A stretch of 40,000 bases of DNA. Origin: Geitlerinema sp. PCC 7407. Lineage in GTDB: Bacteria; Cyanobacteriota; Cyanobacteriia; PCC-7407. Shown piece after piece: positions 1-25,096 of the stretch (position 1 is its first letter; every line of letters starts with the position of its first letter). A program made the translations under genes and the position numbers. The stretch covers positions 3,440,934-3,480,933 of the forward strand of contig NC_019703.1 in NCBI RefSeq assembly GCF_000317045.1, given 5' to 3'. The notes under the pieces were generated by a model, which was not told where the DNA came from, did no database searches, and saw only the letters and a program-made list of their open reading frames with translations.

Positions 1-120
1 AACTACTGACTCAATTTTGTCCTGACGATCGCGAAAATTCTTCAGATCTGTTGCATTTTTTCTAAGTGAAACAACATGCGTAGCTAACTGGCTCAACTGT
101 TGACAATCGTCTACGAGCAT
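1..120 (-). CDS. 5' end of an unidentified gene continuing off the left edge (next gene of the helicase/ATPase operon)
   Basis: The minus-strand ATG at 120-118 overlaps the stop (113-111) of the 1032-aa gene by 10 nt. The frame stays open to position 1 (own translation: MLVDDCQQLSQLATHVVSLRKNATDLKNFRDRQDKIESVV...). It is too short for a family call. Confidence 0.3.
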   Translation of the reverse strand, partial: MLVDDCQQLSQLATHVVSLRKNATDLKNFRDRQDKIESVV

Positions 121-9600: not shown

Positions 9601-9938
9601 GTTGGGTCATCAATTGGGCGATTACAACGGACATGGATGTCTTGTTCAACGGCGTAGCAGAACTTCCCATCTGGCAAGTCAATTTCGTAGCGGCGATCGT
9701 CGTCATGCCACTTGTAAATCCTTCCAATCAGCCATGACTCTCTCTCCTCAGACCAGAGGTAGCAGCGGGTGTGCCGTTGAAGAATAACTCGTTCCAGTGA
9801 GCTGATCGGAACGGATTGCTGGATTCGCTCCCCTACTGATACAAAATATTCAATCTGAGCATCAGAATAAGAAATATCCTGAAGCCTCCCAGTTCCTAGA
9901 CTATTAAGACGTGAGCGAACTAGAATACCTGGTTGCAT
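6648..9938 (-). CDS. SNF2-family helicase/translocase (DpdE-like)
   Basis: 1096-aa ORF. SNF2 motifs LADEVGLGKTIEAG (I), LVLDEAQHIA (II), LLLSATPALN (III) and HFDLPWSPNRLEQRHGRMNRIGR (V-VI). Preceded by a 136-bp gap after dpdA. Confidence 0.85.
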   Translation of the reverse strand: MQPGILVRSRLNSLGTGRLQDISYSDAQIEYFVSVGERIQQSVPISSLERVILQRHTRCYLWSEERESWLIGRIYKWHDDDRRYEIDLPDGKFCYAVEQDIHVRCNRPIDDPTEVLILRGHETPFFYDRRSNFFRCLIEQRAVSRGMPGLLSASIELYPHQVEVVRRVLEDSIQRYLLADEVGLGKTIEAGVILRQYLLDNPTGRVLVIAPKPLLKQWQQELEAKFYLSEEIDWLTIEDIRSTHIQFQPDFLVLDEAQHIAGMAVSPDSAQRECFEFCRKLAHQAKQVLLLSATPALNHEQAFLAMLHLLDPMTYRLEDLDGFKERVRLRQDIGRVLLSFKEDASSFVLKMTLSKLKNLFNSDERLSLLLNQLETILQALQVDSEEQSRVIRSIRTHISDTYRLHRRMLRNRRESLEDVLLDQSGVIPRVEYDEDERSLIVHEYLDEWRVRALGMKNDPDYQDWQQLRAVFLLLFRASGTELGLLQELISARLSGGVSPTLIQDFGEEAELFLKTPLFPGESNILQTLLDNLQQQPEFGDRIDQLQVVLTTLRTKNGDRPFKAVVFTSFSYTCQKIVAPLKEAFGQEAIATYQVGQSIDEVEANTTQFLESPRCFVLVCDASGEEGHNLQFADWMIHFDLPWSPNRLEQRHGRMNRIGRRQLMNYVVFAGADVGDSLHDAWFQVLKDGFKIFQESIASLQFYVDRKLPDLAEALFESGAYGLKQSIAIVHDEIHREKVSIDEQNALDEIDALEESAAQYFQELEDYDSQHRKLKQAVEGWVYEALQFKREFQDGQDQNSDDIFAYRPSLKGRRETLVPVKDLYSLFSSSFAETGTYNRRKALQQPGVSVYRIGHPLLDALAHFVRWDDRGQAFALWRHEESWPSSEGAEWVGFRFDYVVETNLSKLDEVLQSHGWPQSNRTALIRRTDALFPPSVETLVMTTGMQPVTDPKLLEILQRPYSQHREPTRDYNLAKDRSFVLDEFISQDDWEYFCRGTRSRSEKLLRERQQFRDRCQRYATQAKRKLGDRVEQLRLRLERQAQAHSDSLLAQEYELEKALSQIFVQGILTPAIRLDSVGFYIVSGRLPKLPNGEARPQ

Positions 9939-10074
9939 GATCCTAGGTTTAAGCTGAGTCAGGCTATATAGATGCAGCCAAACTAGTATTCCCTTCCATA
10001 GAAGACATACTCACACCGATCACTATTGCTACAGCCGTTTACCTAGTATGACCAATTTCTCCTGAAGTGGCTAT

Positions 10075-12210
10075 TTAGGGTTGGGCTAGGAGTTGTTTCA
10101 AATTGCCAGAAAATTCTCTTTCCGCCAATTCATCTTCTGCTTGAGCAGTAGGAGTGGTGAGATGCTTTAGCAACGATTGAAACCGTTTGTAAAAGACATA
10201 GGTATTATGAAACCCACGCCTGCGATTGCGATTATTATTTCTAAAAATTACTACTTCAATTCCAACATCCTGGCAAATCGCGCAATCGCAAACTTTCCAG
10301 GGCTTTTCCTCTAAAACTTCCCGGTATAGAGTCTCATGTGTAGCTCGTCGCTTCGCCTGAGCATCTAGATCAACTTTGCCATCTCGTGGCAGTTCAACCA
10401 GTTCATCGTAGGCTAGCACAGCTTCAAGAGTTGCCTCGACTCCAAGTTTATTCCTGTCGAACTCGCGCAATGCTTTGAGAGCATCTTGCTCTAGCTTGTG
10501 AAGCGTTGGCAAATCAGCGACTCCAGCAGCTACTAGCTTTTTAACCCGCAAACCATTATTTGCAACAGGCGGCACTCGGATCGCTGCGTAGCGTTTCCCC
10601 GTCATCGTATGATAATTTGCTGTTACCCCTAACCAAGCCTGCCGTAACGGGCTTGCCGAATCACAGCTCGTCACTCCCAAGTGCCGAAAGGCAGGGATTG
10701 TATCGATTCGAGCAACACCAAATAGGTGCATTCGCACATGGGATTGAAGGCGTGGGTGTATTGCTTCAAGAATGGGCAGAATTTCGGAGTTTTGGGCACG
10801 CGCCAATCCTCCTAGAGCAATATAGTCATATCCCATTTGAATCAATTCTTGTACCGCTGCTGCATAAGATTCAGGATCCCAACCCTGTGCCACGCCGATT
10901 GGAGTAAATTGATAGCCTCGTTCCTGGTGTTTTCCTAGAAACTCTGCTGCATTTTCAAGTGTTAGTTTGTATCGAAGATCTCGAATGCCTGGAACCGCAA
11001 ATGGACCAACAATAAGGTGATCAATACTGACCCCAAAATCAAAACCAAGGCGTTCATAGTAATCTAAAATTTCATCTGTATTGTAAGGAGGAAGATCCTC
11101 TTTGATATAGCTAAATGCACCGCAATCCCCCATGATCTTTCCAGGGAAACGAACAAATTTATGAACCCCTAGTTCTTCGACTCTATTTCTCTTCGTTTGA
11201 CTTTCATCTATGACAGCTTTAGAGACTAAAACCCCATCATAGTTAGGGGATGGAAAGAAGATTTCATGGGCGTAAACGTCATCAGCATAGGAGTCATGCC
11301 GATTAGATCCAAAGGAATCTGTTAAGAAATTGTACTCAGGATCAACCCGATCATCCCATTCAGGAATAAAGTACTGCATACCCAAGTGAACATTCGGGGC
11401 AGACGGTAAATCGGGGATGGGAATGAATTCACCTTTGTTTTTTTTCGTGGTGACTTGCTTAGGCTTGCTGCTTATTACTAATTGAGGTAGACCTAAATCA
11501 AGTTCAAGTTGAGTCGTTCTATCAATAATTTCCTGAAAACGACAGGGATCTTGGTGAATTTGTTCAAATAGATCAGGTTGCTCTGCCGCAACTAAAGCAA
11601 ATTGTTTGAATAAAAAACCCTTTAACCCTACTGAACCAAAACCGTACTTCTTTGCCTCAGCGTTCGTGAGAGGCAAGACAAATGCTTGAGGATCTGATGT
11701 CTTAATTAAGTTAGAGCAACTCCCTGGAGCTAAGAAAATCCAAGTTTGCTCCTCGTAAAGGGTGAGCGGTAATGAGATTGCTCTTAAATACTTTTCACCT
11801 AGTAGAACAAAAATCAAATCATAGTCAGAAATTATTTTTTCAAGTGATTGATGTATCTTTAATCGTTTTGCCCAGTCATCTATCTCATGCCCTTTCATTG
11901 TGTTGAAAGTGACTTCGTAGGGTGCAATTACACGATCTTCAGGAATCAATCCATAACCTGCTGAGATGATAAATACATCAATTTCAGGCTTCTCTAAAGT
12001 CTTCCGTAGAGTTCGCACACCCTCCATCAATTGGGTATGCTGCATCCCCGTATACATTTCTCCTGCCGGAGCCATAAACTCAGAAAGCTGCTTTTCTCTT
12101 TTGCGGAGTCGAGCAGCGTGCGTAAAATCTTCCTGAGTGAGTTGATTCTCTGGCTTAAATCGCTTTTCCCCGGTACACGATGTAATGATTAAGACACGGG
12201 GGTAGCGCAT
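10075..12210 (-). CDS. dpdA: DpdA-like DNA-guanine transglycosylase (TGT-fold) fused to an N-terminal ~235-aa domain of unknown function
   Basis: 711-aa ORF. From about aa 275 it shows TGT-like features: [25 protein letters not shown]. The TGT zinc motif CxCxxC...H is present as CDCAICQ-(22 aa)-H near the C-terminus. The start overlaps the queC stop by 22 nt. The N-terminal part ([16 protein letters not shown]..., [19 protein letters not shown]) is not TGT-like and is joined by a Lys-rich linker ([15 protein letters not shown]). Confidence 0.75.
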
Positions 12211-12911
12211 CGGTTCTCCTGTTCGTACAATTCTCGCCCTACTAACGTTGCCAGATCGGGTCTACCTGCGTCAATCAGGGCACGATCGCGAATCCGGCAA
12301 GAGTCGCACAACCCACAGGGTTCATCCTCGCCTTGATAGCAAGACCAGGTGAGGTGAATCGGAACACCTAGTTGTAACGCACGATGCACGATATCTACTT
12401 TGGAATCCATAACCAGTGGAGCCACAAGCTTAGGGGCATGCCCTTCTAATCCAGTCTTGGAGGAGAGGGTTGCAAGATGCTGGACAGCTTCTAGGTACTC
12501 CGGTCGGCAATCAGGATAGCCAGAATAGTCTACGGCATTGATTCCCAAATAAATTGCTTCGGCTCCTTTGGCTTCAGCCAGGGATAGAGCGATCGCCAAA
12601 AAGACCGTATTCCGCCCCGGCACATAAGTAATGGGAATCACACCAGGCTTCACACCGTCAGTCGGCACATCCACAGCCTGGTCAGTCAAGGCAGAACCGC
12701 CCCACTGCGCCAAATTCACATCCACCACAAAGTGTTCCTTGATCCCCAAATGTTCAGCGACCCGCTTAGCAGCAATGAGTTCGCGATCGTGCCTTTGTCC
12801 GTAATGGAGCGATAGAGCAATCAACTCGTAACCATCAGCGATCGCCTGAGCAGCAGAGGTCGATGAATCCAGACCACCAGACAATAAAACAATAGCTTTG
12901 GGAGCATTCAT
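12189..12911 (-). CDS. queC: 7-cyano-7-deazaguanine (preQ0) synthase QueC
   Basis: 240 aa. N-terminal PP-loop [11 protein letters not shown]-terminal zinc Cys cluster [20 protein letters not shown]. Typical QueC length. Confidence 0.9.
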
Positions 12912-12935
12912 GGTTCACCTCATGGTAAGGGGTCA

Positions 12936-13166
12936 TTAGCTTGGCGATCGCCAGATGGGTTTTACGTCACTTTCAAATTGGTAAAGTTTACGGCAAAGGT
13001 GCCCGATCTCATCACTGCGAGGTTGTCCGCTTTCTCCGAAGGTTTCTTGCTCCATGTCCTCGCTCATTTGGTCATAAGGATCGTCATCCTCGTGGTTGTC
13101 AGCCCAATATTCCAGGGATGCAAGGATGATGGAAAGTTCGCGGGGGGATAGTTCAATTTGAGCCAC
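12936..13166 (-). CDS. Small highly acidic protein, unknown function
   Basis: 76-aa ORF between queE and queC. It has a GTG start preceded by GAGAGGTG 7 nt upstream, and the queE stop lies 14 nt upstream. By my count it has 18 Asp/Glu against 6 Lys/Arg. No family recognised. Confidence 0.5.
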   Translation of the reverse strand: MAQIELSPRELSIILASLEYWADNHEDDDPYDQMSEDMEQETFGESGQPRSDEIGHLCRKLYQFESDVKPIWRSPS

Positions 13167-13180
13167 TAGCTTTCACCTCT

Positions 13181-13819
13181 CTATCGAATGTTGGTGAACT
13201 TATGAGTTTGTAAGCTAATCCGCCATTCGGAATGGCTGAGAACGTACTCGAAGATTAGCGAGTAGCTATCAGGCGTGCCCCATTCCGGTTGGAGCAACTT
13301 AACCGCATGAGTTGGAATTCTGGCACCGTGCTCCTCCGCCCATATCAAATCAGAGCGGTTGGCAACGACAACCTTCAATTCACTGACCTGAGAATAAATA
13401 CTTGCATGAGGAGGTTTAGAGGGCTTAGGAGAGAATGTGACCCAGTCAAAACTGCCACTAAAGGGGTGTGCGCCGGAAGTTTCCAGATGCACTCGCAACC
13501 CTGCGTTTCTCAAACCAGAACTGAGGCAGGAGAGGTCATGCAACAAGGGTTCGCCACCTGTGATCACAACGATCGCCGGATTTGCTGCTTTAGCTTCTGC
13601 AATCAGGTCAGTCGTATGGCGTTGGGGATGGCGATGGGCATTCCACGAATGTTTGGTATCACACCAGGGGCAACCCACGTCGCAGCCTGCCAAGCGAATA
13701 AAGAAAGCATTTGTACCTGTCCACGCTCCCTCACCTTGAACGGAGTGGAAGGTTTCCACCACTGGCAAGACTGCCGAGGCTGTTTTAGCGGTTGAGGTCG
13801 TGGGGATCAGGCTTGTCAC
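13181..13819 (-). CDS. queE: 7-carboxy-7-deazaguanine synthase QueE (radical SAM)
   Basis: 212 aa. It starts ...FHSVQGEG and carries the radical-SAM cluster motif CDVGCPWCDT (CxxxCxxC). Size and context between queD and queC fit QueE. Confidence 0.9.
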   Translation of the reverse strand: MTSLIPTTSTAKTASAVLPVVETFHSVQGEGAWTGTNAFFIRLAGCDVGCPWCDTKHSWNAHRHPQRHTTDLIAEAKAANPAIVVITGGEPLLHDLSCLSSGLRNAGLRVHLETSGAHPFSGSFDWVTFSPKPSKPPHASIYSQVSELKVVVANRSDLIWAEEHGARIPTHAVKLLQPEWGTPDSYSLIFEYVLSHSEWRISLQTHKFTNIR

Positions 13820-13854
13820 AATGTGCTAATTCGTAGATGTCGCAAGGGTTACTC

Positions 13855-14244
13855 CTAGTCGTCTTCGTACTCAGCCCAGGAATTGGGGGTTTCAGACACG
13901 GCGACCTTGAGCTTTACATCTGAGGGCAATTGCTTTTTCGTCTTTTCATGGATGTATTGAGCAATCATCTCAGCAGTCGTTTCATAGCCTTCAGGGAGGA
14001 CTTCGTTCAAAACAGAGTGGTCAAGCCCCCCTTTGAGCAAGTCTTGCTTTGCCCAGCGAAGCGTGCGGAAGTCCGCTACCATAACGGGATGAGGACAGTA
14101 TTCGGAGGTATGAAGCTGGCTAGAAGTTGCTTCAATGCGTACCCGGTAGGTATGCCCGTGCATCCGCCCACAAGGACCGTCATAGTCTCGAATGTAGTGG
14201 GCAGCATCGAAGGTAAATTCAGTCGTCAGTTTCCACTTGGGCAT
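13855..14244 (-). CDS. queD: 6-carboxy-5,6,7,8-tetrahydropterin synthase QueD
   Basis: 129 aa. FDAAH...CGRMHGHTY catalytic Cys/His motif of the PTPS/QueD family. First gene of the que-dpdA block. Confidence 0.9.
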   Translation of the reverse strand: MPKWKLTTEFTFDAAHYIRDYDGPCGRMHGHTYRVRIEATSSQLHTSEYCPHPVMVADFRTLRWAKQDLLKGGLDHSVLNEVLPEGYETTAEMIAQYIHEKTKKQLPSDVKLKVAVSETPNSWAEYEDD

Positions 14245-14562
14245 GGGGAGCTATCCGATCGCTTATAAACCAGTGGATCTTAGATCCATTCCATATCTAG
14301 CGGCACAGGTCTTAAATTTATATCACTTCACCCTAAATATAGAATCAGTGTTAACGAATATTCTAGATGTGCCCTCTCAGTCTTCTCCTGCACGGATCAG
14401 AGTATGAGATGAGTTCTATATTAGTTCATTTGTCCTATAAAAGTTTCTCTTGACTTGCCAAATGGCAAGTTGAATCTAAAAATTTAGGTTTGAAGGAAAA
14501 AGCAGGTATTTCTCCTCCCAAGCTGGTCATGTGCTCCACCGCGCGGAAACTTTCTCCAAGGT

Positions 14563-15303
14563 TTAGAAGGTGCTGAGAGATCTTGAAATCCATATTTCAG
14601 ATAGATAAAAGTCTCCCTGTTGCTCCAATTCATAATCACCTAGCAGCAAGGCTAACCATACTTTGACAAGCGTCATCTGTGGGTCATGCCGCTGTAGTCT
14701 CTGACAGAGTTGGGAAAATGTCACTTTTAACGTGGATGATTGGACCCATTCACCTAGCTCTCGGGAAATTGCCTCTATCCAGGCAGATACGTCCTCGTCG
14801 TGGGCGATCGCCAACATCTCTTGCACCTGTATGAATTCGTCGTCAGGATCCACACAAGCCCGCAATCCACCCTTCTCCCCTTCCCCCGCAATTGAAGCTT
14901 CTGCAACCTCTTGAGAGGATCGCTTGTGTTGACACGGCTTTGGTTGACGTGTCAGTTCAGACAGGTCAAGATGCATGGTCTGCTGTATCAGTTCGTTTAG
15001 CCAATCCTCTGCAATGAGCGGTTCTGCCTCAACATCTGTCTCCTCCCAATCACTCAACCACCGCATTGCTCTTTGGTGATGTAGATCCGCTAACTGGGCG
15101 ATCGCCCATCCACCTAACCTCAGCTGGTCGATTTTCGACATCTGTCGCAGAACGGGTTCCACATTTTGCCACAGTTGATTCAAGTTAGCCTGTTCTGGCT
15201 CAACTAATGCTTGCTCGAACAATTGTCGGATCGCTATTTCTGCCTGAGCAAACATAGGGAAATTCCTTACTTTGCCTTTAAAGGACAGGGTGCGATCGGG
15301 CAC
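14563..15303 (-). CDS. Hypothetical protein (acidic, Trp-rich)
   Basis: 246-aa ORF. A more likely start is the ATG at 15255 (MFAQAEIA...), preceded by AAGGAA and lying 11 nt after the stop of the upstream gene. No motif recognised. Confidence 0.5.
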   Translation of the reverse strand: MPDRTLSFKGKVRNFPMFAQAEIAIRQLFEQALVEPEQANLNQLWQNVEPVLRQMSKIDQLRLGGWAIAQLADLHHQRAMRWLSDWEETDVEAEPLIAEDWLNELIQQTMHLDLSELTRQPKPCQHKRSSQEVAEASIAGEGEKGGLRACVDPDDEFIQVQEMLAIAHDEDVSAWIEAISRELGEWVQSSTLKVTFSQLCQRLQRHDPQMTLVKVWLALLLGDYELEQQGDFYLSEIWISRSLSTF

Positions 15304-15776
15304 TCACAAGGTTCTAGACGGATCGGTGGCTCAAACTCCGTGATGCCGTATCGCTCCTTCAACGTTACCAAAACCTTTTGTAGGTAGGACTTCACCTGCC
15401 CATTGGTCATACCCATGCAATGGATTGGCTCAGTTTCTGCCAGTTTGTCTGACCCTCTCCACACCGTCACGGCTACTGCATGAAGGTGGGCGTCCTTCCT
15501 TGCTTCTCGGTAAAGGTAAAGTAGCCCGATCTCTGGAAACTCAACTGGAACAGCGATTTTATCTGTTTCCGAAACCGTTGGTTCCTGACGTTGAGACGGC
15601 GATCGCTTCCTCCGTCGTTTGGCATTACTTTCAATTCGATGACGGTAGTGCGATCGCCGTCGGTGACAGCGCTTAGGGTTCCAGCAATCATCACCCGACT
15701 CACCGTGAAGTTGTTGAGCCTGGGCGACTGAAAGCTGGCTACAGTGCAGACATTTTGCCTGGGTAGGGCGTGGCAT
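15267..15776 (-). CDS. Hypothetical protein with an N-terminal Cys-rich (zinc-ribbon-like) segment and an Arg-rich tract
   Basis: The ORF is open from 15857, but the ATG at 15776 (MPRPTQAKCLHCSQ...CWNPKRCHRRRSHYRHR) is the likely start. CxxC...CxxxxC followed by a basic stretch suggests nucleic-acid binding. Divergent from the recombinase gene. Confidence 0.5.
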   Translation of the reverse strand: MPRPTQAKCLHCSQLSVAQAQQLHGESGDDCWNPKRCHRRRSHYRHRIESNAKRRRKRSPSQRQEPTVSETDKIAVPVEFPEIGLLYLYREARKDAHLHAVAVTVWRGSDKLAETEPIHCMGMTNGQVKSYLQKVLVTLKERYGITEFEPPIRLEPCECPIAPCPLKAK

Positions 15777-15927
15777 CCGCTTGAACGCTGAAGTACAGGT
15801 TTGTAGCGTTAGTTTTTGTGTAGTACAGATAATTATAGTTATTTGGAGTAGAATCAAGAAAATCTGAGCTGGCTACCGCAAATTGAGCCTTCCAGCGCTG
15901 CTCTATTTCAACAACGGGATCAACACG

Positions 15928-16959
15928 ATGGCTGAAGCTGAGCCAAAATTCTACTTCTACGACAAAACGGCTCTCGAAGCTTCTCCTGTCCCCGCTACTC
16001 CTGTTGATCTCCGATGGCAGCGTGTAGAGGAGTTTTTGCAGAGCCGAGAGTTTGCGCCAAACACTCGGAAGGCTTACGAGCGGGAGTTGCGGCGGTTCGC
16101 TAATTGGACAGAGAAACCTTGGCACGCGATTACTGCTCAAGATGTCGATCGCTTTAAGGCATTTCTCAAAGAGGGGCGATCGCAAGACACAACGACTGAC
16201 AATCCAGGAGCAGGGAAGCCTTTAAAGGCGGCTTCAAGTAAACGTGCTCTGGCGGCACTGCAAAGTTTTTTCAAATGGTTGAGCAGTTGGGATTACATCA
16301 GTAAGAATCCGACCCTTGTAATTGAGAAGCCCAAACTGGAGCCGTTGTTCTCTAAAGAACTGAAAGCTTCTGAAGTCCGAGCTTTACAGGAAGCTCTGGA
16401 AAACCGGGGAGAGACAGAAGCGAGAGACACAGCACTCTTGGCGGTGCTGGAACACGGACTCAGGGCTTCTGAGATTGCGGCACTTAACATTGAAGATTAT
16501 GACGGAGTGAGACTGCTTATTCGACGCGCAAAAGCAGACAGTGTGGGCGCTGTTCCTCTGCTTCAGCCTGCTCGAAGATCCCTGGATGCTTATTTAGGAT
16601 GGCGTTTACGGCAGGGATTACCAGTTACTCCCAATTCTCCGCTATTTCTCTCAACTTCTAATAACAGCAAAGGGCAGCGACTGAGCTATTGGGGAATTTA
16701 CAAAATCATGAAGGATCTGGCACAGACAGCAGGGGTTGAGGACTTTCATCCTCATCGTTTACGGCATACGTTTGGAACAAAGTTAGTGCTGAAAAAGATG
16801 GACAGCACATTGGCACGACAATTAATGCGGCACAAATCTGAGGCAAGCTTTGAGCGATACACTCGACGGGCACTAGAGATTGAGGCAGAGAACCAGTTTT
16901 ACGAGGTCTTTGGTGAAGAACATCCTGACGGGGCGATCCATCATGGATTAAACGAGTAG
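15928..16959 (+). CDS. Tyrosine site-specific recombinase/integrase (XerC/D-like)
   Basis: The ORF runs from a TTG at 15883, but the likely start is the ATG at 15928 (MAEAEPKF...). N-terminal SAM-like core-binding region. Catalytic residues are present in GLRASEIAAL (Arg), HPHRLRHTFGT (His-x-x-Arg) and HKSEASFERYTR (His...Tyr). Confidence 0.85.
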   Translation: MAEAEPKFYFYDKTALEASPVPATPVDLRWQRVEEFLQSREFAPNTRKAYERELRRFANWTEKPWHAITAQDVDRFKAFLKEGRSQDTTTDNPGAGKPLKAASSKRALAALQSFFKWLSSWDYISKNPTLVIEKPKLEPLFSKELKASEVRALQEALENRGETEARDTALLAVLEHGLRASEIAALNIEDYDGVRLLIRRAKADSVGAVPLLQPARRSLDAYLGWRLRQGLPVTPNSPLFLSTSNNSKGQRLSYWGIYKIMKDLAQTAGVEDFHPHRLRHTFGTKLVLKKMDSTLARQLMRHKSEASFERYTRRALEIEAENQFYEVFGEEHPDGAIHHGLNE

Positions 16960-16989
16960 CTCAACGCCAATTCAGCATAGCAGTGACCT

Positions 16990-18055
16990 TTAGACGAGAA
17001 ATGCGTTCCCTACAAAAATCTCGCGATCGCCCTCCTGAATAAACACATAGACAACAGAAGAATCGTTGGGATCAAACCGAACATTAACCAGGTTTCCGAT
17101 GTAGTTTTCTAGCTTGTCCTCTCCCCTATAATGTTGATGGTTGAGTACCAGCAGTCGATGTTTAAAGAGCGTACGAGTACGAACTGGTAGTCGATACAAA
17201 TCAGAGGTTTCGTTCAGCCCTATAGATTGCTTCCGAGAACTTGGCTCCCATCGTTGAGATTGCCCTTGCTCAGTCGTCTTCAGACTTGATTCCTTTTCCC
17301 AGTAATCTGTGATAAAACGCTGAAGCTGTTGGTTCAATTCCTCTGGAGTGAAGGTTCTTAAATTTTGAGGGGATGATTCAGATTGGTTCTGGCGTTTTTT
17401 GCTTAAATATCCAGGTAGTTTTGAAAGCAATTTCCAATCAACATTCTTAAGATTAAACCTGTCATCATCAAAAAATCTCATTTTTAGCTCCATAATGCCA
17501 TTCCTGACTTAACTGAACTCACTTCCAGTAAAGGTGAATCAAAAGTAGACTCACTATCAGTTGTTATTAACTGTGTAGATGTTCCATACCTACTAGAGGG
17601 TATGCATCAATTCTTGTGAAAGCACTGCACCGTATATCATCAGAACTTGAATGCTATACCTGGTTGCATTGCAAAGCTCACAATACATATTGAAAAGAGA
17701 TGAATGGCTACGGCTAACAACTGGCGGCGAAATTACCGCTACTTCCTTGAAATTAGGCGATCAATGCAATTGCTCTAATCAACCAGTTATCATCATCTTA
17801 CAAAGTCCTTTTAGACATAATGCTCATGTCTAAAACTTACTTATTCTTGAAGGACAAATAGTAAGCAATGATTTTCCGAGAATAGACATCAGTAACGGTG
17901 GTTAACCAAGGACGTTCTGGATTCCCCTGCTTGTTGATAATATGAATGTCGATGCCAGAGCCATCAATCTCGACGATTTGGCTATCGTGATTTTTCTCAC
18001 CTTCGTTGCTGTTGTTTGTGTTCATTGTGAAATCAAATGAGTGTGTTGTGTACAA
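16990..18055 (-). pseudogene. Decayed copy of a TnsB-core-only paralogue (two ORF fragments: 18055-17837 and 17493-16990)
   Basis: The 72-aa fragment (..SQIVEIDGSGIDIHIINKQGNPERPWLTTVTDVYSRKIIAYYLSF) aligns with the first DDE aspartate region of TnsB. The 167-aa fragment (..YRGEDKLENYIGNLVNVRFDPNDSSVVYVFIQEGDREIFVGNAFLV) aligns with the TnsB beta-barrel region. The ~340 bp between them, which should encode the second D and the E, has no open frame. Confidence 0.55.
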
Positions 18056-18097
18056 CTGGTTTATCCATAATTAGTAGAACTGTTATGGATAAACCAG
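18056..18097. repeat. Perfect 15-bp inverted repeat with a 12-nt loop
   Basis: CTGGTTTATCCATAA (18056-18070) and TTATGGATAAACCAG (18083-18097) are exact reverse complements. The repeat lies between the intact and decayed TnsB-core genes. No U-run follows on either strand, so it is not a canonical terminator. Confidence 0.7.
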
Positions 18098-18116
18098 ATT
18101 TCATTGCTAAGCTTAG

Positions 18117-19031
18117 TTAAGACATTGGAACTGCGAAGGCGTGTCCTAGAAATACCTCTTGACCATTGTTCTGCTGATAGACACTAATAGTTGACATGTC
18201 AGTAGGATTGTGGCGGACAACAACAAGCTCCCCTACACGAGTTAGTAGTTGCTCACTACGATACACAAGATTGCGGAAGGTCAGTTGCCCAAACTTTTGG
18301 ACACGACGTTGAGACGGAGGAATAAACAAATCATCTAAAGTTTGTTCAGAAGGACCAGCGGGTTGATTGATTAAGCCCTCCTTCCAACGCTGCGATCGAG
18401 TTTGATTTGGTGCCTTCGGGTAAGGTCGTTGATTGTAGTTATCTACGATGTAATGCCCTACAATCTGCTCCAGTTGTTGCAACTCCAAATACACTTCGCG
18501 GTTAGCTGGAGGTTGTTGAGGAATCTCATTGAATCCAGGTAACAATGCAAAGCAGTCGTGATTGGCTGTCAGAAAGAAACGCTCTACTGAGCCGCCCTCA
18601 GGAGGAGATACACGCTGGTGGAACTGGCATCCTAAATGATGAGTGATTTGATCAAGAGCAGAGGGATCAAGATCACTCGCCATATCAATAACGATGCCTT
18701 CAGGAATACCATGAATCTCCCAATCACAACAAGTTTCATACTGCACCTGAGGTTTCTTTGGTAGCATCGCATGGCGCAACACTGTGAGAATTGAAGCATC
18801 AGAGCTTACATTGAGTTGATAGCCCGCAATGCACCCTGAGTACAAGTCACCAACTACATCGAGAAAGGGATTACAGACTTGGTCGTTAGCAACCTTGACA
18901 GGAACACTTAGTTTCGAACGATTGATTACCCACAATTGATTGCTATGGGTAACACACACATTGGTTTCATTGGTCATGAATAGTTTTGTCTCCATTGAAT
19001 ATAAAGTCCAGTAGCATTTTGCTGATTGCAT
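18117..19031 (-). CDS. TnsB-derived DDE-core protein lacking the N-terminal DNA-binding and C-terminal TnsC-binding regions; first catalytic Asp replaced by Asn
   Basis: 304-aa ORF (likely start ATG 18977, MTNETNV, with GGAG upstream). It aligns by eye with TnsB at 21598-23685: WVINRS against WQVDST (D to N), IVIDMASD against LFTDGGSE (D kept), GGSVERFFLTAN against GGGIERIFKTLN (E kept), and VVVRHNPTDMSTISVY against VTLRYDPRDVTTMFAY. It ends right after ...EVFLGHAFAVPMS. Confidence 0.65.
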   Translation of the reverse strand: MQSAKCYWTLYSMETKLFMTNETNVCVTHSNQLWVINRSKLSVPVKVANDQVCNPFLDVVGDLYSGCIAGYQLNVSSDASILTVLRHAMLPKKPQVQYETCCDWEIHGIPEGIVIDMASDLDPSALDQITHHLGCQFHQRVSPPEGGSVERFFLTANHDCFALLPGFNEIPQQPPANREVYLELQQLEQIVGHYIVDNYNQRPYPKAPNQTRSQRWKEGLINQPAGPSEQTLDDLFIPPSQRRVQKFGQLTFRNLVYRSEQLLTRVGELVVVRHNPTDMSTISVYQQNNGQEVFLGHAFAVPMS

Positions 19032-19159
19032 GATAGTACATTTGAACTATAATGCACATTTTTTTAGGAAAAAGTGAGTTGTCAACTGGCAAAAGTTTTA
19101 CCGATGAGGCAACAAAACTTTGCCCTACTCATACAAGTGATAAAAGACACAACCATTGA

Positions 19160-19687
19160 CTAATATGCCTTCTGGTACTTAACCATTCGCTTGTAAGGCA
19201 TCCCACACTTCTCACAAAAATCATTTGTCAAAATAGACTGTATAGAAAACTTTTTTCGGCACCCTGTTCCAGGACATTTTGAAAGCAGTCGAAGCTGATG
19301 CTGATCGCACCCTTCCGTTGATCGAAGCTGCCATTTCATCTGATGGCATGGATGTTTGAGGTAACAAGCTGCACAAAAGCGAATTGTGTTTTGAACAACT
19401 TCTTCACTTTCAGGAGGTAACATTTCAGCTAACCTCTTGGGACTGATTCCAATTAAAGAACCTACAGCTTTCAGTTCTTTTCGATTTGGGTAAGGGTTGT
19501 ATTGGAACCTTTCCCATCTTGCAAGTACTGGTCCAATACCTGCCTCCTGAGTTAGCCAACTTGGTGTCGAGAGCCTGTTTCCTTTCCCATATCGAAATCG
19601 ATGAAAGTAACTGGGCAAACTCTCACCCTCTAAAGGTTCAACGTATTCTAGTTGAAGTTGAGGTTGTTCTAATTTGGGTTTAGGCAT
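19160..19687 (-). CDS. tniQ: Short TniQ-family targeting protein (type V-K CAST-like)
   Basis: 175 aa. LEGESLPSYFHRFR, LARWERFQYNPYP, RLAEMLPP, IRFCAACY, PCHQMKWQ and CDQHQLRLLSKCPG..C closely parallel the ~167-aa ShCAST TniQ as I remember it (EGESLSHFLGRFRR, ARWERFHFNP, LAQMLPP, IRLCGACY, CDRHQLK). It sits directly after tnsC. Confidence 0.85.
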   Translation of the reverse strand: MPKPKLEQPQLQLEYVEPLEGESLPSYFHRFRYGKGNRLSTPSWLTQEAGIGPVLARWERFQYNPYPNRKELKAVGSLIGISPKRLAEMLPPESEEVVQNTIRFCAACYLKHPCHQMKWQLRSTEGCDQHQLRLLSKCPGTGCRKKFSIQSILTNDFCEKCGMPYKRMVKYQKAY

Positions 19688-19735
19688 CGCTTAAATCCAG
19701 GTCGATTATTTGCTTGTGACCATTCAATGGAACAA

Positions 19736-20665
19736 CTATTTTCTTTTCTTACCTGCTTGTTTATGATTTGCTATTGCCAGCTTAAGTATGTCCTTAGTAA
19801 TTTTGGGTGAACCTTGAATTACAGCCTCAATCGCAGCACTCCTCAGAATGGCATCAAGTGCGCGCAGACTATAGTTGGTAGACTGAATCAGAAGTTTAAT
19901 CAATTCTTTTGATGTCAATCCTGATGGTTCTGGAAGTTTCAATACCTGTTTTTCCCAAATTGCTACCGTTTTTGCAAACTCTGTAGCGCTCATTTTGTCA
20001 AAATGGTAGCGAAATTCAAATCTGCCATCCACTTGTTCATCTCTAGAGATGAGGGTAGTCAATCTATTAGTACCTACGAGAATAATGGACAGTTCGAGAT
20101 CCTCGGTGTTGTAGATGTAGCTAAGTTCAGCTAAAGTTTCATACTTAAAGCGATTTGCCTCATCTAAAATCAGTGTTTCGGTGCGGCGTAATTCAAGTGT
20201 TTCGAGCAATCGTTCTCGTAAGTCGTCTGTTGAACCTTGCAATGCGCGATTGCCCATAACCTGCAGCAATCCTTTATGACATTGCTTTGGACCACAATTA
20301 GGAGTTACTTCCCAATAGACAACGGGCATGTGTCGTTGTTTACCGGATTGAGGTTGTACTGGAACACGAAGCTTATATGCCATGCAACCCATTGTTTTGC
20401 CAACTCCAGAATTACCTTCGACAATTCCAGATTCCCCCGCCAAACGTCGAGTATCTAGCCAATCATGGAGATTGGTGACGGAGGTAAGTGGCACATAAAA
20501 TTTCTTACGCAACCGCTTGATTTCAGCCTGTTTCTCTGGCGACAGTTGCTTGACTGATCCTAATTTTTCTGCGACTTTCACAGCGTTTGTAGCTGTCATT
20601 CCTGCATCTGTTTCTGCATCTGTTTCCGCATCTGTAGCTGGTACTTCAGCGTTTTTGGTTGTCAT
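19736..20665 (-). CDS. tnsC: TnsC/TniB-like AAA+ transposition ATPase
   Basis: 309-aa ORF. Walker A GNSGVGKTMG and Walker B ETLILDEANRF. An alternative start at ATG 20599 (MTATNAVK) would give 287 aa and would exclude the TDAETDAETDAG repeat. Confidence 0.8.
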   Translation of the reverse strand: MTTKNAEVPATDAETDAETDAGMTATNAVKVAEKLGSVKQLSPEKQAEIKRLRKKFYVPLTSVTNLHDWLDTRRLAGESGIVEGNSGVGKTMGCMAYKLRVPVQPQSGKQRHMPVVYWEVTPNCGPKQCHKGLLQVMGNRALQGSTDDLRERLLETLELRRTETLILDEANRFKYETLAELSYIYNTEDLELSIILVGTNRLTTLISRDEQVDGRFEFRYHFDKMSATEFAKTVAIWEKQVLKLPEPSGLTSKELIKLLIQSTNYSLRALDAILRSAAIEAVIQGSPKITKDILKLAIANHKQAGKKRK

Positions 20666-21597
20666 AAAATTTCTGGGTAGGTTGGCAAAAGGTTCGTGTA
20701 AAACTGGGCAGTTAGGCAGGTAGTATCTAAAGCTTGAAAAATAATGGTACTCAGGTACTATTGTTTGTGGTAAAGAATATTCAATGTGTAAAAAAACTTA
20801 ATAAAGCTAGTTAGGAGAATAAGCGAAGGTTCGGTATCCTAGTGCTTGCAAGGTTTTGAAGAGGTTTTCCTGCACCATCTTTCCACTTAACAAGAGGCAG
20901 TATCTTGGCGGATTGACAAATCTTTCGCCGATCCCATTCGCCCCACAACTAAAGACGCGCTAATCGCTGAAGTCCTCCTAAAGAGGACTGGATCAAAGTG
21001 TCATTGAGGACACATTTTGAAGATTGGTGGAGATTGAGCAGATGATGCGGAGATAAGGAAAAGGGGGGACGCAGAGAGCAAGAACGTTGCCTGAAATCCC
21101 CATGTCTCCGTGTCTCGGTGTCTGTGTCGAACCCACTTCCCAACTGCCGAATGCATTTGATCAGAATTCAGTCCGTTTTACTAACTTCTATTAGTCCTGA
21201 ACTGGAAATCAGCAGAGGATGAACGAAGCGACTGAATTTCAGCAGTTTTGCCTATCAATCAGTCCCTTGCACTCAATTACAAATATAAAATGCTGCACAT
21301 CGAGAAGTAGAATGACGATCGCTGGTATTCGTGTTGTTGAACGACTCGTCAGTAGGCAAAGTTTAATGTGATTGGCGATCGCTGGAGATTTCAATAATTG
21401 TCTCTGCTTAATCCAACTTCCAATCCAAATTGCTCTTGGGCACCTGAAGTTACCTTACATTCCTCAACAGGTTACTGGAGACGCAGAACATTCCAAGCAT
21501 TAAATAGAAATTTTGATTCCAGAGGCGGATAAGAGACTATTTCCTCCATTCCAGAAACTCTGAATGCAAGAATGGTCGAAATTTAAGGACAAAGCTC

Positions 21598-23685
21598 CTA
21601 GAAATCCTGTATCATCTCATCCCAATCATAAACTTCTACCTCAGGTATTTCAATATCACCCTCAGATACTACTGTCTCCTTATCTTCTGCACTACCAGAA
21701 CTCCTAGTATTCAACTCTGAACTTTCCTCCTCCATTCCTTCTGAGCTACTTGCTTCTGAACCCGAACTATCTCCAGAGGTACTAGGGTCAGAAGTTTCAC
21801 TACCATCATCACTAGGTAGTGAAACTTCTGAAGTTGGTAGTTCTTCATCTTGAAGAATACTGTCTGCTGGTACTTCATGGAAATCATCATGTTCAGATCT
21901 CCTACGCTGCTTCCTGCTTAATTTTTGGATTTCTGCAACACGAGAATCACGATAGTCAATTTCTCTTAAAACAGACAAGACAGTTTGATTCGTAACAGCT
22001 TTTCCGTCCTCCCTCAACCCTGCGTTAATTACTTCAAGTTCATCTAACGAAAGACGCTCACACTCTAAATCACGAGGATGTATGCGAGCTATAAATTTAC
22101 CTAACCTGTCCTCTGACTCATAGCTGTAAGCAAACATTGTAGTAACATCTCTGGGATCATAACGGAGAGTCACGTATTCACCAGCATAGGAACTTAAGCA
22201 ATCACCACGGTATATAAGGTTCTTGAAGTAAACATCTCCATATTTCTGAACCCTACGATGAGCTTCTTTCATTAAGCAAATATCTAGTTCTCTCTCATCG
22301 ACAAATTCTAGAATGTCTTCTTGTGTGGCTTGCCAACGTTGATAGCGTGTTTGAGTTTTTACCTTTGGATGTTGCCTCCGGTTGTAATTATCAACGAGAT
22401 ACTTAACTAGAAGCATTTCAAGGTCGGTAAGGGTTAGGCAAGCCTCCTTTTCCGCATCTTTAGGGCGGTCTTTAACATTGGAGCCTTTATACCCTGGTAT
22501 TTGAGAGAAAAACTCAGTGTTTAGAGTTTTAAAGATCCGTTCAATTCCGCCTCCATCTGAGGGGCGGAGACGAAGGTAATGAACAAAACCCAGTTTCTCT
22601 GAAACCTGTGAAATATGTTCACAGTCGTGCTCTGAACCTCCATCCGTAAAAAGAACACAAGGTTTTCCCTGTATCCCCCATTCATTTTCGAGGTTGTAAT
22701 CTGGGCCATAGTTCTTAGGCAGAATTGCGTGGCGTAGTGCAAGAGCGACTTCTTTAGACCCAGGACCCAAGAATCCAAGATGGAACCCAACCACACATCC
22801 AGAGTAGGTATCCAAGATGATTGTCAACACGGGACACCCTATTTCAACACCATCCTTATCTACTAATAAAACATCTGCTCTCGTGCTATCAACTTGCCAA
22901 ACATCTTGGCTCCATCTCACAGGAATACTTTGTCCACAACGAGTTTTGACATGATGTTGATGTGGAGACTGTCCTGCATGTCTTACCGTTTTATTCTCCT
23001 GATTAATCAAAGGCTCTAAGATGCGGTAGACAGCCATCTTGCTTGGGTATTGCCCATCTTGAAGACCAAATTCTAATCTGGCTAATTTCTGCACCCTTAC
23101 AAAGACTTGGTATTGATTCATTCTCTGCGAGCCTTTGTTTCGATTGATGTAAGTGTCGATGATGTAACTCGACCATTTAAAGTCCTGATATTTTTCCTCC
23201 AAACGAAACTTTTCAGGAATTGGGTATAGTTTATCGATTCGAGGAGTACCCTTATCAGCTCTTGAGTTAGAGGCGAAGGCTTCTGAGTTTTTCTCTAAAT
23301 ATTTGTTGATTTCCCTTTGAATCGATCGGTCACTTAAACCAAGCTGCTTAGCAGCTTCTTTTTTCCTTTGTTTACGGGTATCCTCATCCCTAGCAGCGCA
23401 TATAGCTCGGATCAATTTGAGCCTGAGCTTCATATCTTTTTCTTTGGGTTCCTTCTTTTTCTTGGAGGAATAAGTGGCTTTAGTGGCATTGTCTGCTTCG
23501 TCAGAATCATCCAGGTCCTTTTCAAGCAGTTCATCCTGGTTCAGTTCTGAAGAATTTTGCGTTACATCTGAATCTGCTTCCAACGATGTATTATTAGCCA
23601 CAATATTTCTCTCAAGTCTGATTAATACACTTTTTCTACGTTGCAACGGATAGACGAGAAATGTGGAGCACATATCTCTGTCCAC
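21598..23685 (-). CDS. tnsB: TnsB, Mu/Tn7-type DDE transposase (type V-K CAST-like)
   Basis: 695-aa ORF (the true start may be internal). HTH-like region LGLSDRSIQREINKY and SRADKGTPRI. DDE triad in VWQVDSTRADVLLVD, VLFTDGGSEH and GGGIERIFKTLNTE. YDPRD beta-barrel motif. An acidic/Ser-rich tail ends EVYDWDEMIQDF (compare ShCAST ...EVWDYEQLREEYGF from memory). Confidence 0.88.
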   Translation of the reverse strand: MDRDMCSTFLVYPLQRRKSVLIRLERNIVANNTSLEADSDVTQNSSELNQDELLEKDLDDSDEADNATKATYSSKKKKEPKEKDMKLRLKLIRAICAARDEDTRKQRKKEAAKQLGLSDRSIQREINKYLEKNSEAFASNSRADKGTPRIDKLYPIPEKFRLEEKYQDFKWSSYIIDTYINRNKGSQRMNQYQVFVRVQKLARLEFGLQDGQYPSKMAVYRILEPLINQENKTVRHAGQSPHQHHVKTRCGQSIPVRWSQDVWQVDSTRADVLLVDKDGVEIGCPVLTIILDTYSGCVVGFHLGFLGPGSKEVALALRHAILPKNYGPDYNLENEWGIQGKPCVLFTDGGSEHDCEHISQVSEKLGFVHYLRLRPSDGGGIERIFKTLNTEFFSQIPGYKGSNVKDRPKDAEKEACLTLTDLEMLLVKYLVDNYNRRQHPKVKTQTRYQRWQATQEDILEFVDERELDICLMKEAHRRVQKYGDVYFKNLIYRGDCLSSYAGEYVTLRYDPRDVTTMFAYSYESEDRLGKFIARIHPRDLECERLSLDELEVINAGLREDGKAVTNQTVLSVLREIDYRDSRVAEIQKLSRKQRRRSEHDDFHEVPADSILQDEELPTSEVSLPSDDGSETSDPSTSGDSSGSEASSSEGMEEESSELNTRSSGSAEDKETVVSEGDIEIPEVEVYDWDEMIQDF

Positions 23686-23722
23686 ATAAGTTCGCTTGTA
23701 CTACATAGTAAAATCCGTTTCG

Positions 23723-23922
23723 GAAAAAGACAACTATTTCGTGAAATATGGGTAGCCCCTGAAAAAACGTGTTTCTGGAAAACGACAACTAATGTGTGAC
23801 ACGTATACAGATTTGCCACAAGTAAGCTCGAAAAGCCTAAAACCGTTTACCTGTAAGAATTGCAGAAATTTTCATCGCGACATTATTGTGTGAAAAAGCG
23901 ACAAATAATTCGTACTTGTACA
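23723..23922. repeat. Transposon end with four direct putative TnsB-binding repeats and an 8-bp TTGTACAA terminus region
   Basis: Plus-strand repeats: GGAAAAAGACAACTATTTCGTGAAAT (core 23729-23743), GGAAAACGACAACTAATGTGTGACAC (core 23784-23798), GCGACATTATTGTGTGAAAAA (core 23879-23893) and GAAAAAGCGACAAATAATTCGTACTTGTACA (core 23900-15, terminus 23917-23922). On the minus strand the end reads TGTACAAGTACGAATTATTTGTCGC, close to the ShCAST left end TGTACAGTGACAAATTATCTGTCG as I recall it. Confidence 0.7.
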
Positions 23923-24192
23923 AGAATTTCTGCCTAAATCAGGCGGGTGTTCAGAGCACCTGGACTTCACCGCAGCGATTTGCAATGCCCGCTGACAGAC
24001 GCTCGACAGAAAAGACCGGAAATCTGCTTCAGCACCTTCGTGCTCGAAAATTCGACGAACTACGCTTCTCGCAGACATCCAACAGACTTAGTTTTAGGCT
24101 CTGCCAGCACAAAAATACTGGGTAATGCCAAGATTCGTGAGCCATATCGGGCAAATTCGGGATAACTGGGAGTAGTCATTTCAATTTCTCCC

Positions 24193-24459
24193 ATGTCAGA
24201 ACAATTGCCGGAGAATTCGATCATTTCAGTGGAACGACAGGGTTCGTCGCCACCCAAACTATGGGAAAGCGAAGCCTTGCTAAAAGCGATTGAGTCTGGC
24301 CTGATTAGCCGCGTTGACTCTCCCCGGGCCAAAGAACTGGCAAGGGTCGGTATGCCGTGCAAGATACTTGCACCAAGGCAGGAATGGAGAACGGGGTATA
24401 TCCGGGTGAGGGTTGAGTTTGTGCCGGGTGAGCTACCTCAAGAGCAAACCGAGCAGTAA
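24193..24459 (+). CDS. KGK-domain-like small protein, paralogue 1
   Basis: 88 aa, MSEQLPENS...GMPCKILAPRQEWRTGYIRVRVEFVPGELPQEQTEQ. The C-terminal pattern G.PC..L.PG..W..G....V.F.P.E matches my recollection of the cyanobacterial KGK domain (PF08872). First of three tandem paralogues. Confidence 0.7.
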   Translation: MSEQLPENSIISVERQGSSPPKLWESEALLKAIESGLISRVDSPRAKELARVGMPCKILAPRQEWRTGYIRVRVEFVPGELPQEQTEQ

Positions 24460-24501
24460 TAGACTGCAACGTCAAAAAGTTGTCATTTTTGGTCTTTTTC
24501 C

Positions 24502-24774
24502 ATGTCAGAAGAATTGCCAGTAGATGCAGTAATCGCAGTGAACGATGATGTTCCAATGCACGAGCGGTTCTTTACCAACGAGTGGTTTCTAGAAAAAATC
24601 CGTAGTAGTTGTGATTACAGAATTTCGTCAGCCAGCCCCATAGGCGAGCGTCTTCTTGCGGAAGGAATACCATGCAAAGTGCTTGAACCAGGCCAATTTT
24701 GGGAAACAGGGTATATCCAGGTACGGGTTGAGTTTGTGCCGGATGAGTTACCTCAGGCATCGAGCGAACAGTAA
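24502..24774 (+). CDS. KGK-domain-like small protein, paralogue 2
   Basis: 90 aa, MSEELPVDAVIAVN...GIPCKVLEPGQFWETGYIQVRVEFVPDELPQ. The start lies 309 bp after the paralogue 1 start and has a similar upstream sequence (tttttccATGTCAGAAGAATTGCC). Confidence 0.7.
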   Translation: MSEELPVDAVIAVNDDVPMHERFFTNEWFLEKIRSSCDYRISSASPIGERLLAEGIPCKVLEPGQFWETGYIQVRVEFVPDELPQASSEQ

Positions 24775-24814
24775 CGGACTGAAAGTCGAAAAGTAGATAT
24801 TTTGAGCTTTTTCA

Positions 24815-25096
24815 ATGTCAGAACACTTTCCATTAGATGCAGTAATCGCGGTCAACTCCGAGGTTGGCATGTACACTAAGCTTTTTAGATCTGACTGGCT
24901 AATATCTCAAATTCAAAAAGGTGCAAATGCTGAGCTAGGTGGCTCAGCTGGCAATTTTTTGTCAGATGATGGATTGCCCTGCGAGGTTCTCCGGCCTGGA
25001 ATGCATTGGCGGTCAGGAAAACTTCACATCAAGATCAAGTTTGTACCTGGTGAGCTGCCACAAGAGCAAAGCGATCAAGCTAGCGATCAGATTTAA
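24815..25096 (+). CDS. KGK-domain-like small protein, paralogue 3
   Basis: 93 aa, MSEHFPLDAVIAVN...GLPCEVLRPGMHWRSGKLHIKIKFVPGELPQEQSDQ. The start lies 313 bp after the paralogue 2 start. Confidence 0.7.
   Translation: MSEHFPLDAVIAVNSEVGMYTKLFRSDWLISQIQKGANAELGGSAGNFLSDDGLPCEVLRPGMHWRSGKLHIKIKFVPGELPQEQSDQASDQI

Follow-up and report, generated by a model that had tools for sequence, protein, structure and literature searches.

The 40,000-nucleotide stretch of the Geitlerinema sp. PCC 7407 chromosome considered here (contig NC_019703.1; hereafter the window, with positions counted from its first letter) carries on its minus strand, between 19160 and 23922, the transposition genes and one end of a type V-K CRISPR-associated transposon (CAST). 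The right, tnsB-proximal terminus occupies 23898-23922 on the minus strand and reads 5'-TGTACAAGTACGAATTATTTGTCGC inward, opening with 5'-TGTACA at 23922; it occurs once in the window and never in shuffled sequences. Overlapping it and extending inwards (23723-23913, minus strand) are repeats with the core GACAnnnnnTTCGTGAAA on the plus strand, of which three related copies (23723-42, 23778-97 and 23894-913) were observed where 0.17 would be expected; a looser motif scan added a fourth copy at 23879-95, giving four matches here and one elsewhere in the 40 kb. These right-end repeats are putative TnsB-binding sites. The gap between the terminus and the start of tnsB is only 237 bp, which leaves no room for tnsA. 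The first gene, tnsB (21598-23685, minus strand; AFY67293.1), encodes a DDE transposase of 695 amino acids with a Pfam Mu-transpos_C match. It is followed by a non-coding spacer of 930 bp (20666-21597), by tnsC (19736-20665, minus strand; AFY67292.1), which encodes a TniB-family AAA+ ATPase of 309 amino acids recognised by Pfam TniB and AAA_22, and by tniQ (19160-19687, minus strand; AFY67291.1), whose product is of the short V-K type, at 175 amino acids. In other V-K CASTs tnsB and tnsC are adjacent, whereas here the spacer splits them; it gave no Rfam match. Although it also occurs in two related contigs described below, L003 and L010, nowhere else in the module is conservation so low (76-83% identity).

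Among proteins of solved structure in the PDB, those of the Scytonema hofmanni V-K CAST (ShCAST) were the top match for all three products, with 434 bits for TnsB over residues 83-625, 206 bits for TnsC and 149.5 bits for TniQ; the TnsB and TnsC proteins of Tn6677, Tn7 and other systems scored far below them in the same search. The residues aligned to D205, D287 and E321 of ShTnsB (in our numbering), which form its catalytic triad, are conserved in the window TnsB, as are the Walker motifs of TnsC. Read away from the terminus, the genes run tnsB, tnsC and a short tniQ with no tnsA, which is the V-K order. The ShCAST matches, together with the TGTACA end and its TnsB-site repeats, bear out a preliminary description of this DNA that had assigned the trio and the end to the V-K type. 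That description had also drawn the transposition module as far left as 16990; the DNA from 16990 to 19031 lies outside the trio, however, and consists of two tnsB relics that are treated below with the cargo.

Nothing of the RNA-guided half of a CAST was found in the window. Searches with tblastn, using ShCas12k (a query 100% identical to PDB 7n3o_A) and the first 400 residues of the PCC 7407 Cas12k, gave no cas12k there, the best E-value being about 3; the published CRISPR repeat and anchor spacer of PCC 7407 do not occur in it, and it contains no tRNA and no Rfam match. The sole open reading frame (ORF) of 650 amino acids (35762-37714) encodes an AMIN/NAGPA protein and lies far outside the element. 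The preliminary description was thus accurate in reporting that cas12k, a trans-activating CRISPR RNA (tracrRNA) and an array are missing from the window, and that no ORF of about 640 amino acids is unaccounted for. Its proposal to scan leftwards for inverted copies of the end bore no fruit: scans with the terminus and with the repeat motif found no second transposon end within the window.

The missing parts have been catalogued twice for this strain. Row 149 of Supplementary Table 1 of Hsieh et al. (bioRxiv 10.1101/2021.02.06.429022) places on CP003591.1 a cas12k gene (AFY67257.1) at 3406549-3408810 on the minus strand, a CRISPR array at 3405789-3405979, a truncated-repeat handle AGGAAGGTTTGAAAG with a 17-nt anchor spacer AGGCAGGGGTCTGCAAA, and the anchor protospacer inside a tRNA-Cys gene at 3405075-3405148, where the context of the protospacer adjacent motif (PAM) is GTGGTA. 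Ziemann et al. (2023; Supplementary Data 1, PMC9938897) list the same Cas12k as one of 118 V-K CASTs and give an LE_position (left end) of 3405167 and an RE_position (right end) of 3464855, that is, an element of 59,689 bp. In the V-K layout set out by the latter study, the left end follows a tRNA and has the array and anchor spacer next to it; the right end opens with tnsB, tnsC and tniQ, which point away from it; the bulk of the cargo lies between cas12k and tniQ, and the PAM is 46-82 nt from the left end (PMC9938897). By the published coordinates the PCC 7407 Cas12k is 753 amino acids long, and its PAM, ending at 3405094, stands about 73 nt from the left end, inside that range. Separations of 10-23 kb between tniQ and cas12k are recorded for other elements in the portion of the first catalogue drawn on here (bioRxiv 10.1101/2021.02.06.429022). 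The premise of the preliminary description that in V-K elements tniQ is followed by cas12k accordingly holds for ShCAST and fails as a general rule, cargo lying between the two genes. Further published supplementary lists that were consulted have no entry for PCC 7407.

Gene order connects the window with these coordinates. The ORFs of the window are 100% identical to PCC 7407 proteins. Accessions rise with the window coordinate, from DpdH (AFY67279) through the recombinase (AFY67289), the first tnsB relic (AFY67290), TniQ (AFY67291), TnsC (AFY67292) and TnsB (AFY67293) to PurM (AFY67295), and on this scale cas12k (AFY67257.1), which shares its strand with tniQ (AFY67291.1), is 34 genes away from it. 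Gene density inside the window is 1.57 kb per gene, and 37 accessions over 59.7 kb make 1.6 kb per gene. If the published right end at 3464855 is window position 23922, the window starts near 3,440,934 and cas12k ends 32.1 kb to the left of it. We put at roughly 90% the probability that the region is the right-end part of a single type V-K CAST of about 59.7 kb, inserted in Geitlerinema sp. PCC 7407 on the downstream side of tRNA-Cys. The window stops short of the RNA-guided half. The element is an ordinary V-K CAST that has already been catalogued; the published presence of cas12k and an array in the same element is what the preliminary description had itself named as the mark of an ordinary CAST. 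Each V-K feature that could be tested was found, the placing of cas12k in the same element resting on the two published tables. Of the four explanations offered earlier for the absent module, the one that placed it beyond the window, at the far end, is correct according to those tables; the idea that this V-K module lacks or has lost its RNA-guided part is not supported, since cas12k, array and anchor guide are published within the 59.7 kb between the left and right ends.

Related contigs show what the locus looks like without the element. The contigs compared were L003 from Logan, L008, L010 and L011 from JGI, L001 and L006 from Pantanalinema rosaneae CENA516, and L004 and L005. The last two, from organisms whose PurM is at least 90% identical to that of PCC 7407, have an empty site: they match the flank in the window at about 97% identity, exactly as far as the junction. 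This chromosomal flank of the right end (23923-24030), which begins AGAAT, equals the region downstream of tRNA-Cys in the uninserted relatives. At the junction, the window reads ...GGCAGAAATTCT / TGTACAAGTACG... and the relatives read ...GGCAAAAATTCT / TGCCTAAAATTTGG...; beyond it, the relatives (L004 was compared over 12300-12578) have 138 bp with a terminator-like hairpin and then the reverse complement of the 3' end of a tRNA with a GGCGGCA acceptor stem. The discriminator of that tRNA is U73, the tRNA-Cys identity base. Because the site is empty in these relatives, the DNA from tRNA-Cys to 23922 is inserted in PCC 7407, in the orientation that the published coordinates require. L004 and L005 are independent assemblies, and both break off within the 3' part of tRNA-Cys, some 30 nt in, which hints at a repeat or at population heterogeneity there, possibly another insertion.

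The left end is represented among the relatives by L008, a 1.66-kb JGI contig found by scanning metagenomes with the published repeat. It holds two repeats, one base off the PCC 7407 repeat, and a handle and anchor spacer identical to those of PCC 7407; 226 bp further on its left terminus reads inward TGTACAATCACAAATTCTTTGTCGTATTTCACGAATTCGTGTC (left end TGTACAATCACAAATTCTTTGTCG), and a tRNA-Cys lies 8 bp beyond. The right-end terminus of the window matches this left end at 20 of the first 25 nucleotides, the same GACAnnnTTCGTGAAA-type repeats are carried by both, and the L008 left end is exactly 60 bp from a GTA PAM in the tRNA-Cys, again within 46-82 nt. An array of the same repeat family with an identical or near-identical guide was seen in both L008 and L011, the array and guide of PCC 7407 itself being known from the published table; in L011 this array and anchor-guide family also occurs together with a Cas12k that shares 83% identity with that of PCC 7407 over 155 aligned residues. 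The L011 Cas12k (L011:873-3030) is called as two ORFs of 193 and 510 amino acids, which points to a frameshift in the gene or else to an error in the sequencing. Rfam searches of the module, the tnsB-tnsC spacer and L008 returned nothing except the tRNA in L008, and the array spacers of PCC 7407 and L008 matched nothing in the window or the compared loci. The PCC 7407 type of Cas12k was recognised (as P0277) through a 400-residue fragment printed in a paper supplement; its N-terminal part shares about 34-38% identity with the collected Cas12k homologues. A word-indexed Cas12k search gave only Nostocales-type proteins among its best 120 matches, no PCC 7407-type protein was present among ten cluster candidates of 720-781 amino acids, and scans of viral contigs with the repeat and with the end sequence found no match. 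A TniQ 51% identical to that of the window sits in a canonical CAST with its own Cas12k, in the order tnsB, tnsC, tniQ, 5.6 kb of cargo, merR, Cas12k (66% identical to ShCas12k) and tRNA-His.

The right end seen in the window recurs at two further sites. In L003, a 64.7-kb Logan contig, the 233-bp right end (23690-23922 in the window) is 100% identical and the flank differs; measured in 150-bp windows, identity is 100% over the first 750 bp or so and 91-93% over the 14 kb that can be compared. The 32.6-kb JGI contig L010 has the same right end with a third flank, and the gene order of tnsB, tnsC, tniQ, relics, recombinase and que/dpd genes is the same in L003 and L010. The flanks of the right end in L003 (380-404) and L010 (9670-9680) both end in CATC (...TTGTACATC / and ...TGTCCCATC /, respectively), and that of L003 has a TGTACA 2 bp before the terminus. 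Against L003, the ratio of non-synonymous to synonymous substitution rates (dN/dS) is 0.14 for tnsB, 0.14 for tniQ and 0.35 for tnsC. Judged from these sequences, the three insertion sites and the dN/dS values of 0.14 and 0.35 indicate a transposition module that was recently mobile and is probably functional.

On the reading proposed here, the minus strand of the whole element would run from the right end at 23922 through tnsB, tnsC and tniQ, about 51 kb of cargo, cas12k, the tracrRNA, the array and the 17-nt tRNA-Cys anchor guide to the left end, with a cargo that would comprise the two tnsB relics, an XerC/D-like recombinase, a DNA-modification island and some 21 further genes to the left of the window. 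By analogy with ShCAST, Cas12k with tracrRNA and CRISPR RNA would bind the protospacer in tRNA-Cys, TnsC filaments capped by TniQ would bridge the Cas12k complex to TnsB, and TnsB would join the ends about 60-80 bp downstream of the PAM, the end on the cas12k side lying closest to the target. Since there is no TnsA, transposition should be replicative.

The cargo begins beyond tniQ with the two relics. The first (18117-19031, minus strand; AFY67290.1), a remnant of a second V-K-type tnsB, encodes 304 amino acids that comprise the catalytic core and beta-barrel only; both the DNA-binding N-terminal part and the C-terminal tail are missing, and Asn stands where the first catalytic Asp would be. 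Identity to the intact TnsB is 34%, and ShTnsB residues 191-474 are matched at 185 bits; this relic has a dN/dS of 0.45 against 0.14 for tnsB and tniQ, and its counterparts in the relatives measure 184, 230, 248, 286 and 304 amino acids. The second (16990-18055, minus strand), from a further tnsB, is frame-disrupted, with the start of a Pfam rve domain at 17837-18055 and a Mu-transposase C domain at 16990-17493, as also seen in pairwise comparisons; its counterparts are 66-237 amino acids long. Both relics keep the same position across the relatives although their lengths differ, and from their sequences the ORFs at 16990-19031 are best read as dead tnsB relics rather than functional genes. 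That the truncated TnsB-like ORF might be functional seems unlikely in view of its length spread of 184-304 amino acids, the loss of the first catalytic Asp and the dN/dS of 0.45.

Next come a tyrosine recombinase of the XerC/XerD kind (15883-16959, plus strand; AFY67289.1; Pfam Phage_integrase, with XerD as the PDB match) and, divergent from it, two ORFs with no Pfam or NCBIfam family (14563-15857, minus strand), a block that stays with the recombinase and is syntenic in L001, L003 and L010. The recombinase scores 128-131 bits with the NCBIfam XerC/XerD models, below their cut-off, and at 343-358 amino acids has a SAM-like N-domain; no solved protelomerase was among its PDB matches. As a speculation, such a recombinase might act as a resolvase in a TnsA-less transposon that forms cointegrates. 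The remainder, from 1 to 14244 on the minus strand and running past the left edge of the window, is a Dpd island for 7-deazaguanine DNA modification. It contains dpdH (111-3209, minus strand, by its NCBI name), dpdG (3206-4138, minus strand; NCBIfam DpdG, 116 bits), dpdF (4117-6651) and dpdE (6648-9938), both on the minus strand and named by NCBI, dpdA (10075-12210, minus strand; NCBIfam DpdA, 481 bits), and, identified by Pfam on the same strand, queC (12189-12911), queE (13181-13819) and queD (13855-14244). A DpdA transglycosylase, preQ0 synthesis genes and the DpdE-H helicase and ATPase genes are thus all found together, and none of dpdB, dpdC, dpdD, dpdI, dpdJ and dpdK was seen in the window, to the left of which they would lie. 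The evidence supports the earlier suggestion that the recombinase module and the Dpd island are cargo of the V-K element. On the other side of the right end, between it and purM, are three tandem paralogous ORFs (24193-25096) of 88, 90 and 93 amino acids with a weak KGK-domain match, and two of these small KGK-like ORFs are found in L004 and L005.

Several points weigh against a single V-K CAST running from tRNA-Cys to 23922. Firstly, that the published right end of 3464855 and window position 23922 are the same is something that we infer, with support from gene count and density, strand, orientation and the empty site. Secondly, in row 149 the TnsB, TnsC and TniQ columns and the end columns are blank (bioRxiv 10.1101/2021.02.06.429022), and no regulator of the CvkR or Arc type is entered for the PCC 7407 CAST (PMC9938897). 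Thirdly, the right flank corresponds to position +139 from tRNA-Cys in the relatives, and the published left end lies at about +20 (8 bp past the tRNA in L008), so that roughly 115-130 bp of native sequence is missing beside the right end. A single clean insertion does not explain this loss, and the segment is not elsewhere in the window; a clean 5-bp target-site duplication, for which the right flank would supply AGAAT, is doubtful. A later deletion, an adjacent deletion through an intramolecular replicative event and a composite origin from tandem elements are possible causes, and the last would also explain the tnsB relics. Finally, the relics inside the element themselves speak of a composite history.

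The alternative that survives best takes that history at face value. The right end with tnsB, tnsC and tniQ would have come from a second V-K-type element, itself devoid of cas12k, that became joined to a neighbour carrying the gene. Either a tandem insertion with subsequent deletion or recombination, or an intramolecular replicative event, would have brought the two together, and the resulting 59.7-kb hybrid may or may not still move as one. We regard this as possible and distinctly less probable than the single element. Two dead tnsB genes of V-K type directly after tniQ are what it would leave behind, and a right flank some 115-130 bp farther from the tRNA than the left end predicts fits it too, no simple duplication being expected in that case. 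It also draws on a comparison with Pantanalinema rosaneae CENA516 (L001/L006), in which the window from about 12219 to 19073 (the relics, the recombinase, the two ORFs and queD/E/C) is 85-95% identical at the DNA level; the homology begins 87 bp past the tniQ stop, and the TniQ adjoining it in Pantanalinema is only 37% identical and stands among remains disrupted by insertion sequences (IS), with no cas12k within 6 kb of queC. The arrangement from tnsB to Dpd, however, recurs with an identical right end at the two other sites, at 91-93% DNA identity, and because those sites carry the same arrangement the unit, or its right 15-22 kb at the least, has moved in its present form. The core genes are under purifying selection, and only one V-K-type TniQ of PCC 7407 surfaced in the protein search. 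A hybrid origin would in any case leave the present identity of the element unchanged, as a V-K CAST that has a guide and both of its ends.

Because a block 85-95% identical to that of Pantanalinema adjoins a TniQ only 37% identical, cargo appears to have moved between different CASTs. That the PCC 7407 element is a mosaic and not one clean insertion, its conserved block from 87 bp past tniQ shared with a Pantanalinema CAST remnant, is a tentative conclusion that we would not yet favour. If it is true, V-K CASTs trade large defence cargo, through tandem insertion at a shared site with subsequent deletion or through the recombinase, and the right junction could be the scar of the intramolecular replicative event expected for a TnsA-less transposon.

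It seems improbable that the element is the remnant of a CAST in decay, no longer able to move, with transposase genes that are intact in appearance only. The internal relics, the poorly conserved 930-bp spacer between tnsB and tnsC, the missing flank segment and the want of an entry for a CvkR-type regulator would suit such a remnant; set against them are full-length tnsB, tnsC and tniQ genes with conserved catalytic and Walker residues, dN/dS values of 0.14-0.35, and identical or near-identical right ends at three insertion sites, the first 750 bp being 100% identical between two hosts. Least credible, and very improbable, is a Cas12k-independent relative of V-K CASTs, of the kind known in cyanobacteria (Hsieh et al. 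2024 preprint) as PAST, which is telomeric and one-ended, or as a minimal TnsBC element selecting its targets without a guide RNA: the window has neither a second end nor cas12k and a gene of the tyrosine recombinase family lies downstream of tniQ, but that recombinase is XerC/D-like with no solved protelomerase among its PDB matches, the locus at about 3.44-3.46 Mb of a 4.68-Mb contig is interior and not at a contig end, the TniQ is close to ShTniQ (149.5 bits) where PAST TniQs are described as more diverged, and the published cas12k, array and anchor guide at the far end, with both ends, already contradict it.

Taken as a single V-K CAST, the element resembles ShCAST (structures 8rdu, 8ea3, 7m99 and 7n6i) in its TnsA-less tnsB-tnsC-short tniQ operon, its TGTACA termini, its repeated TnsB-type sites, its Cas12k partner and, in the relative L008, an insertion 60 bp from a GTN PAM. 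It differs in that its proteins are divergent homologues, its Cas12k is longer (753 amino acids), about 51 kb of cargo separates tniQ from cas12k, which are adjacent in ShCAST, and tnsB and tnsC have the 930-bp spacer between them. With other cyanobacterial V-K CASTs, such as AnCAST of Anabaena 7120 (118 systems in PMC9938897; 282 elements in Hsieh et al. 2021), it shares the order tRNA, left end, anchor spacer, array, tracrRNA, cas12k, cargo, tniQ, tnsC, tnsB, right end; it is much larger, at 59.7 kb against about 13-30 kb in those listed examples that were compared, no CvkR or Arc regulator is listed for it, and its tnsB-tnsC-tniQ operon was left unlinked in the 2021 table. PAST and the minimal TnsBC element of CP000117.1 (Hsieh et al. 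2024 preprint) are likewise cyanobacterial and TnsA-less, have a TnsB and TnsC near those of V-K and lack cas12k beside the operon. Unlike PAST, which combines TelT with a telomere or contig end and a single transposon end, the PCC 7407 element has an XerC/D-like recombinase, a chromosome-interior position, a V-K-type TniQ, a distal cas12k and a published second end. As in defence islands carried as Tn7-like cargo, its defence genes stand between the transposition genes and the far end, and nothing unusual was found in this respect; defence cargo reportedly occurs in Tn7-like elements generally, in work of Benler et al. dated 2021.

The PCC 7407 CAST was thus already known. What is added here is an explicit link between its transposase operon and right end and a cas12k that one catalogue had left unlinked, together with the Dpd cargo and the irregular right junction. 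A Dpd DNA-modification island travels in a V-K CAST that is inserted at three or more different sites. Cargo normally separates tniQ from cas12k in V-K elements, and the separation can exceed 50 kb, so the lack of a nearby cas12k does not mark a V-K transposase module as a guide-free variant. The tnsB relics and the shared cargo block, for their part, provide a modest lead on the swapping of cargo between CASTs.

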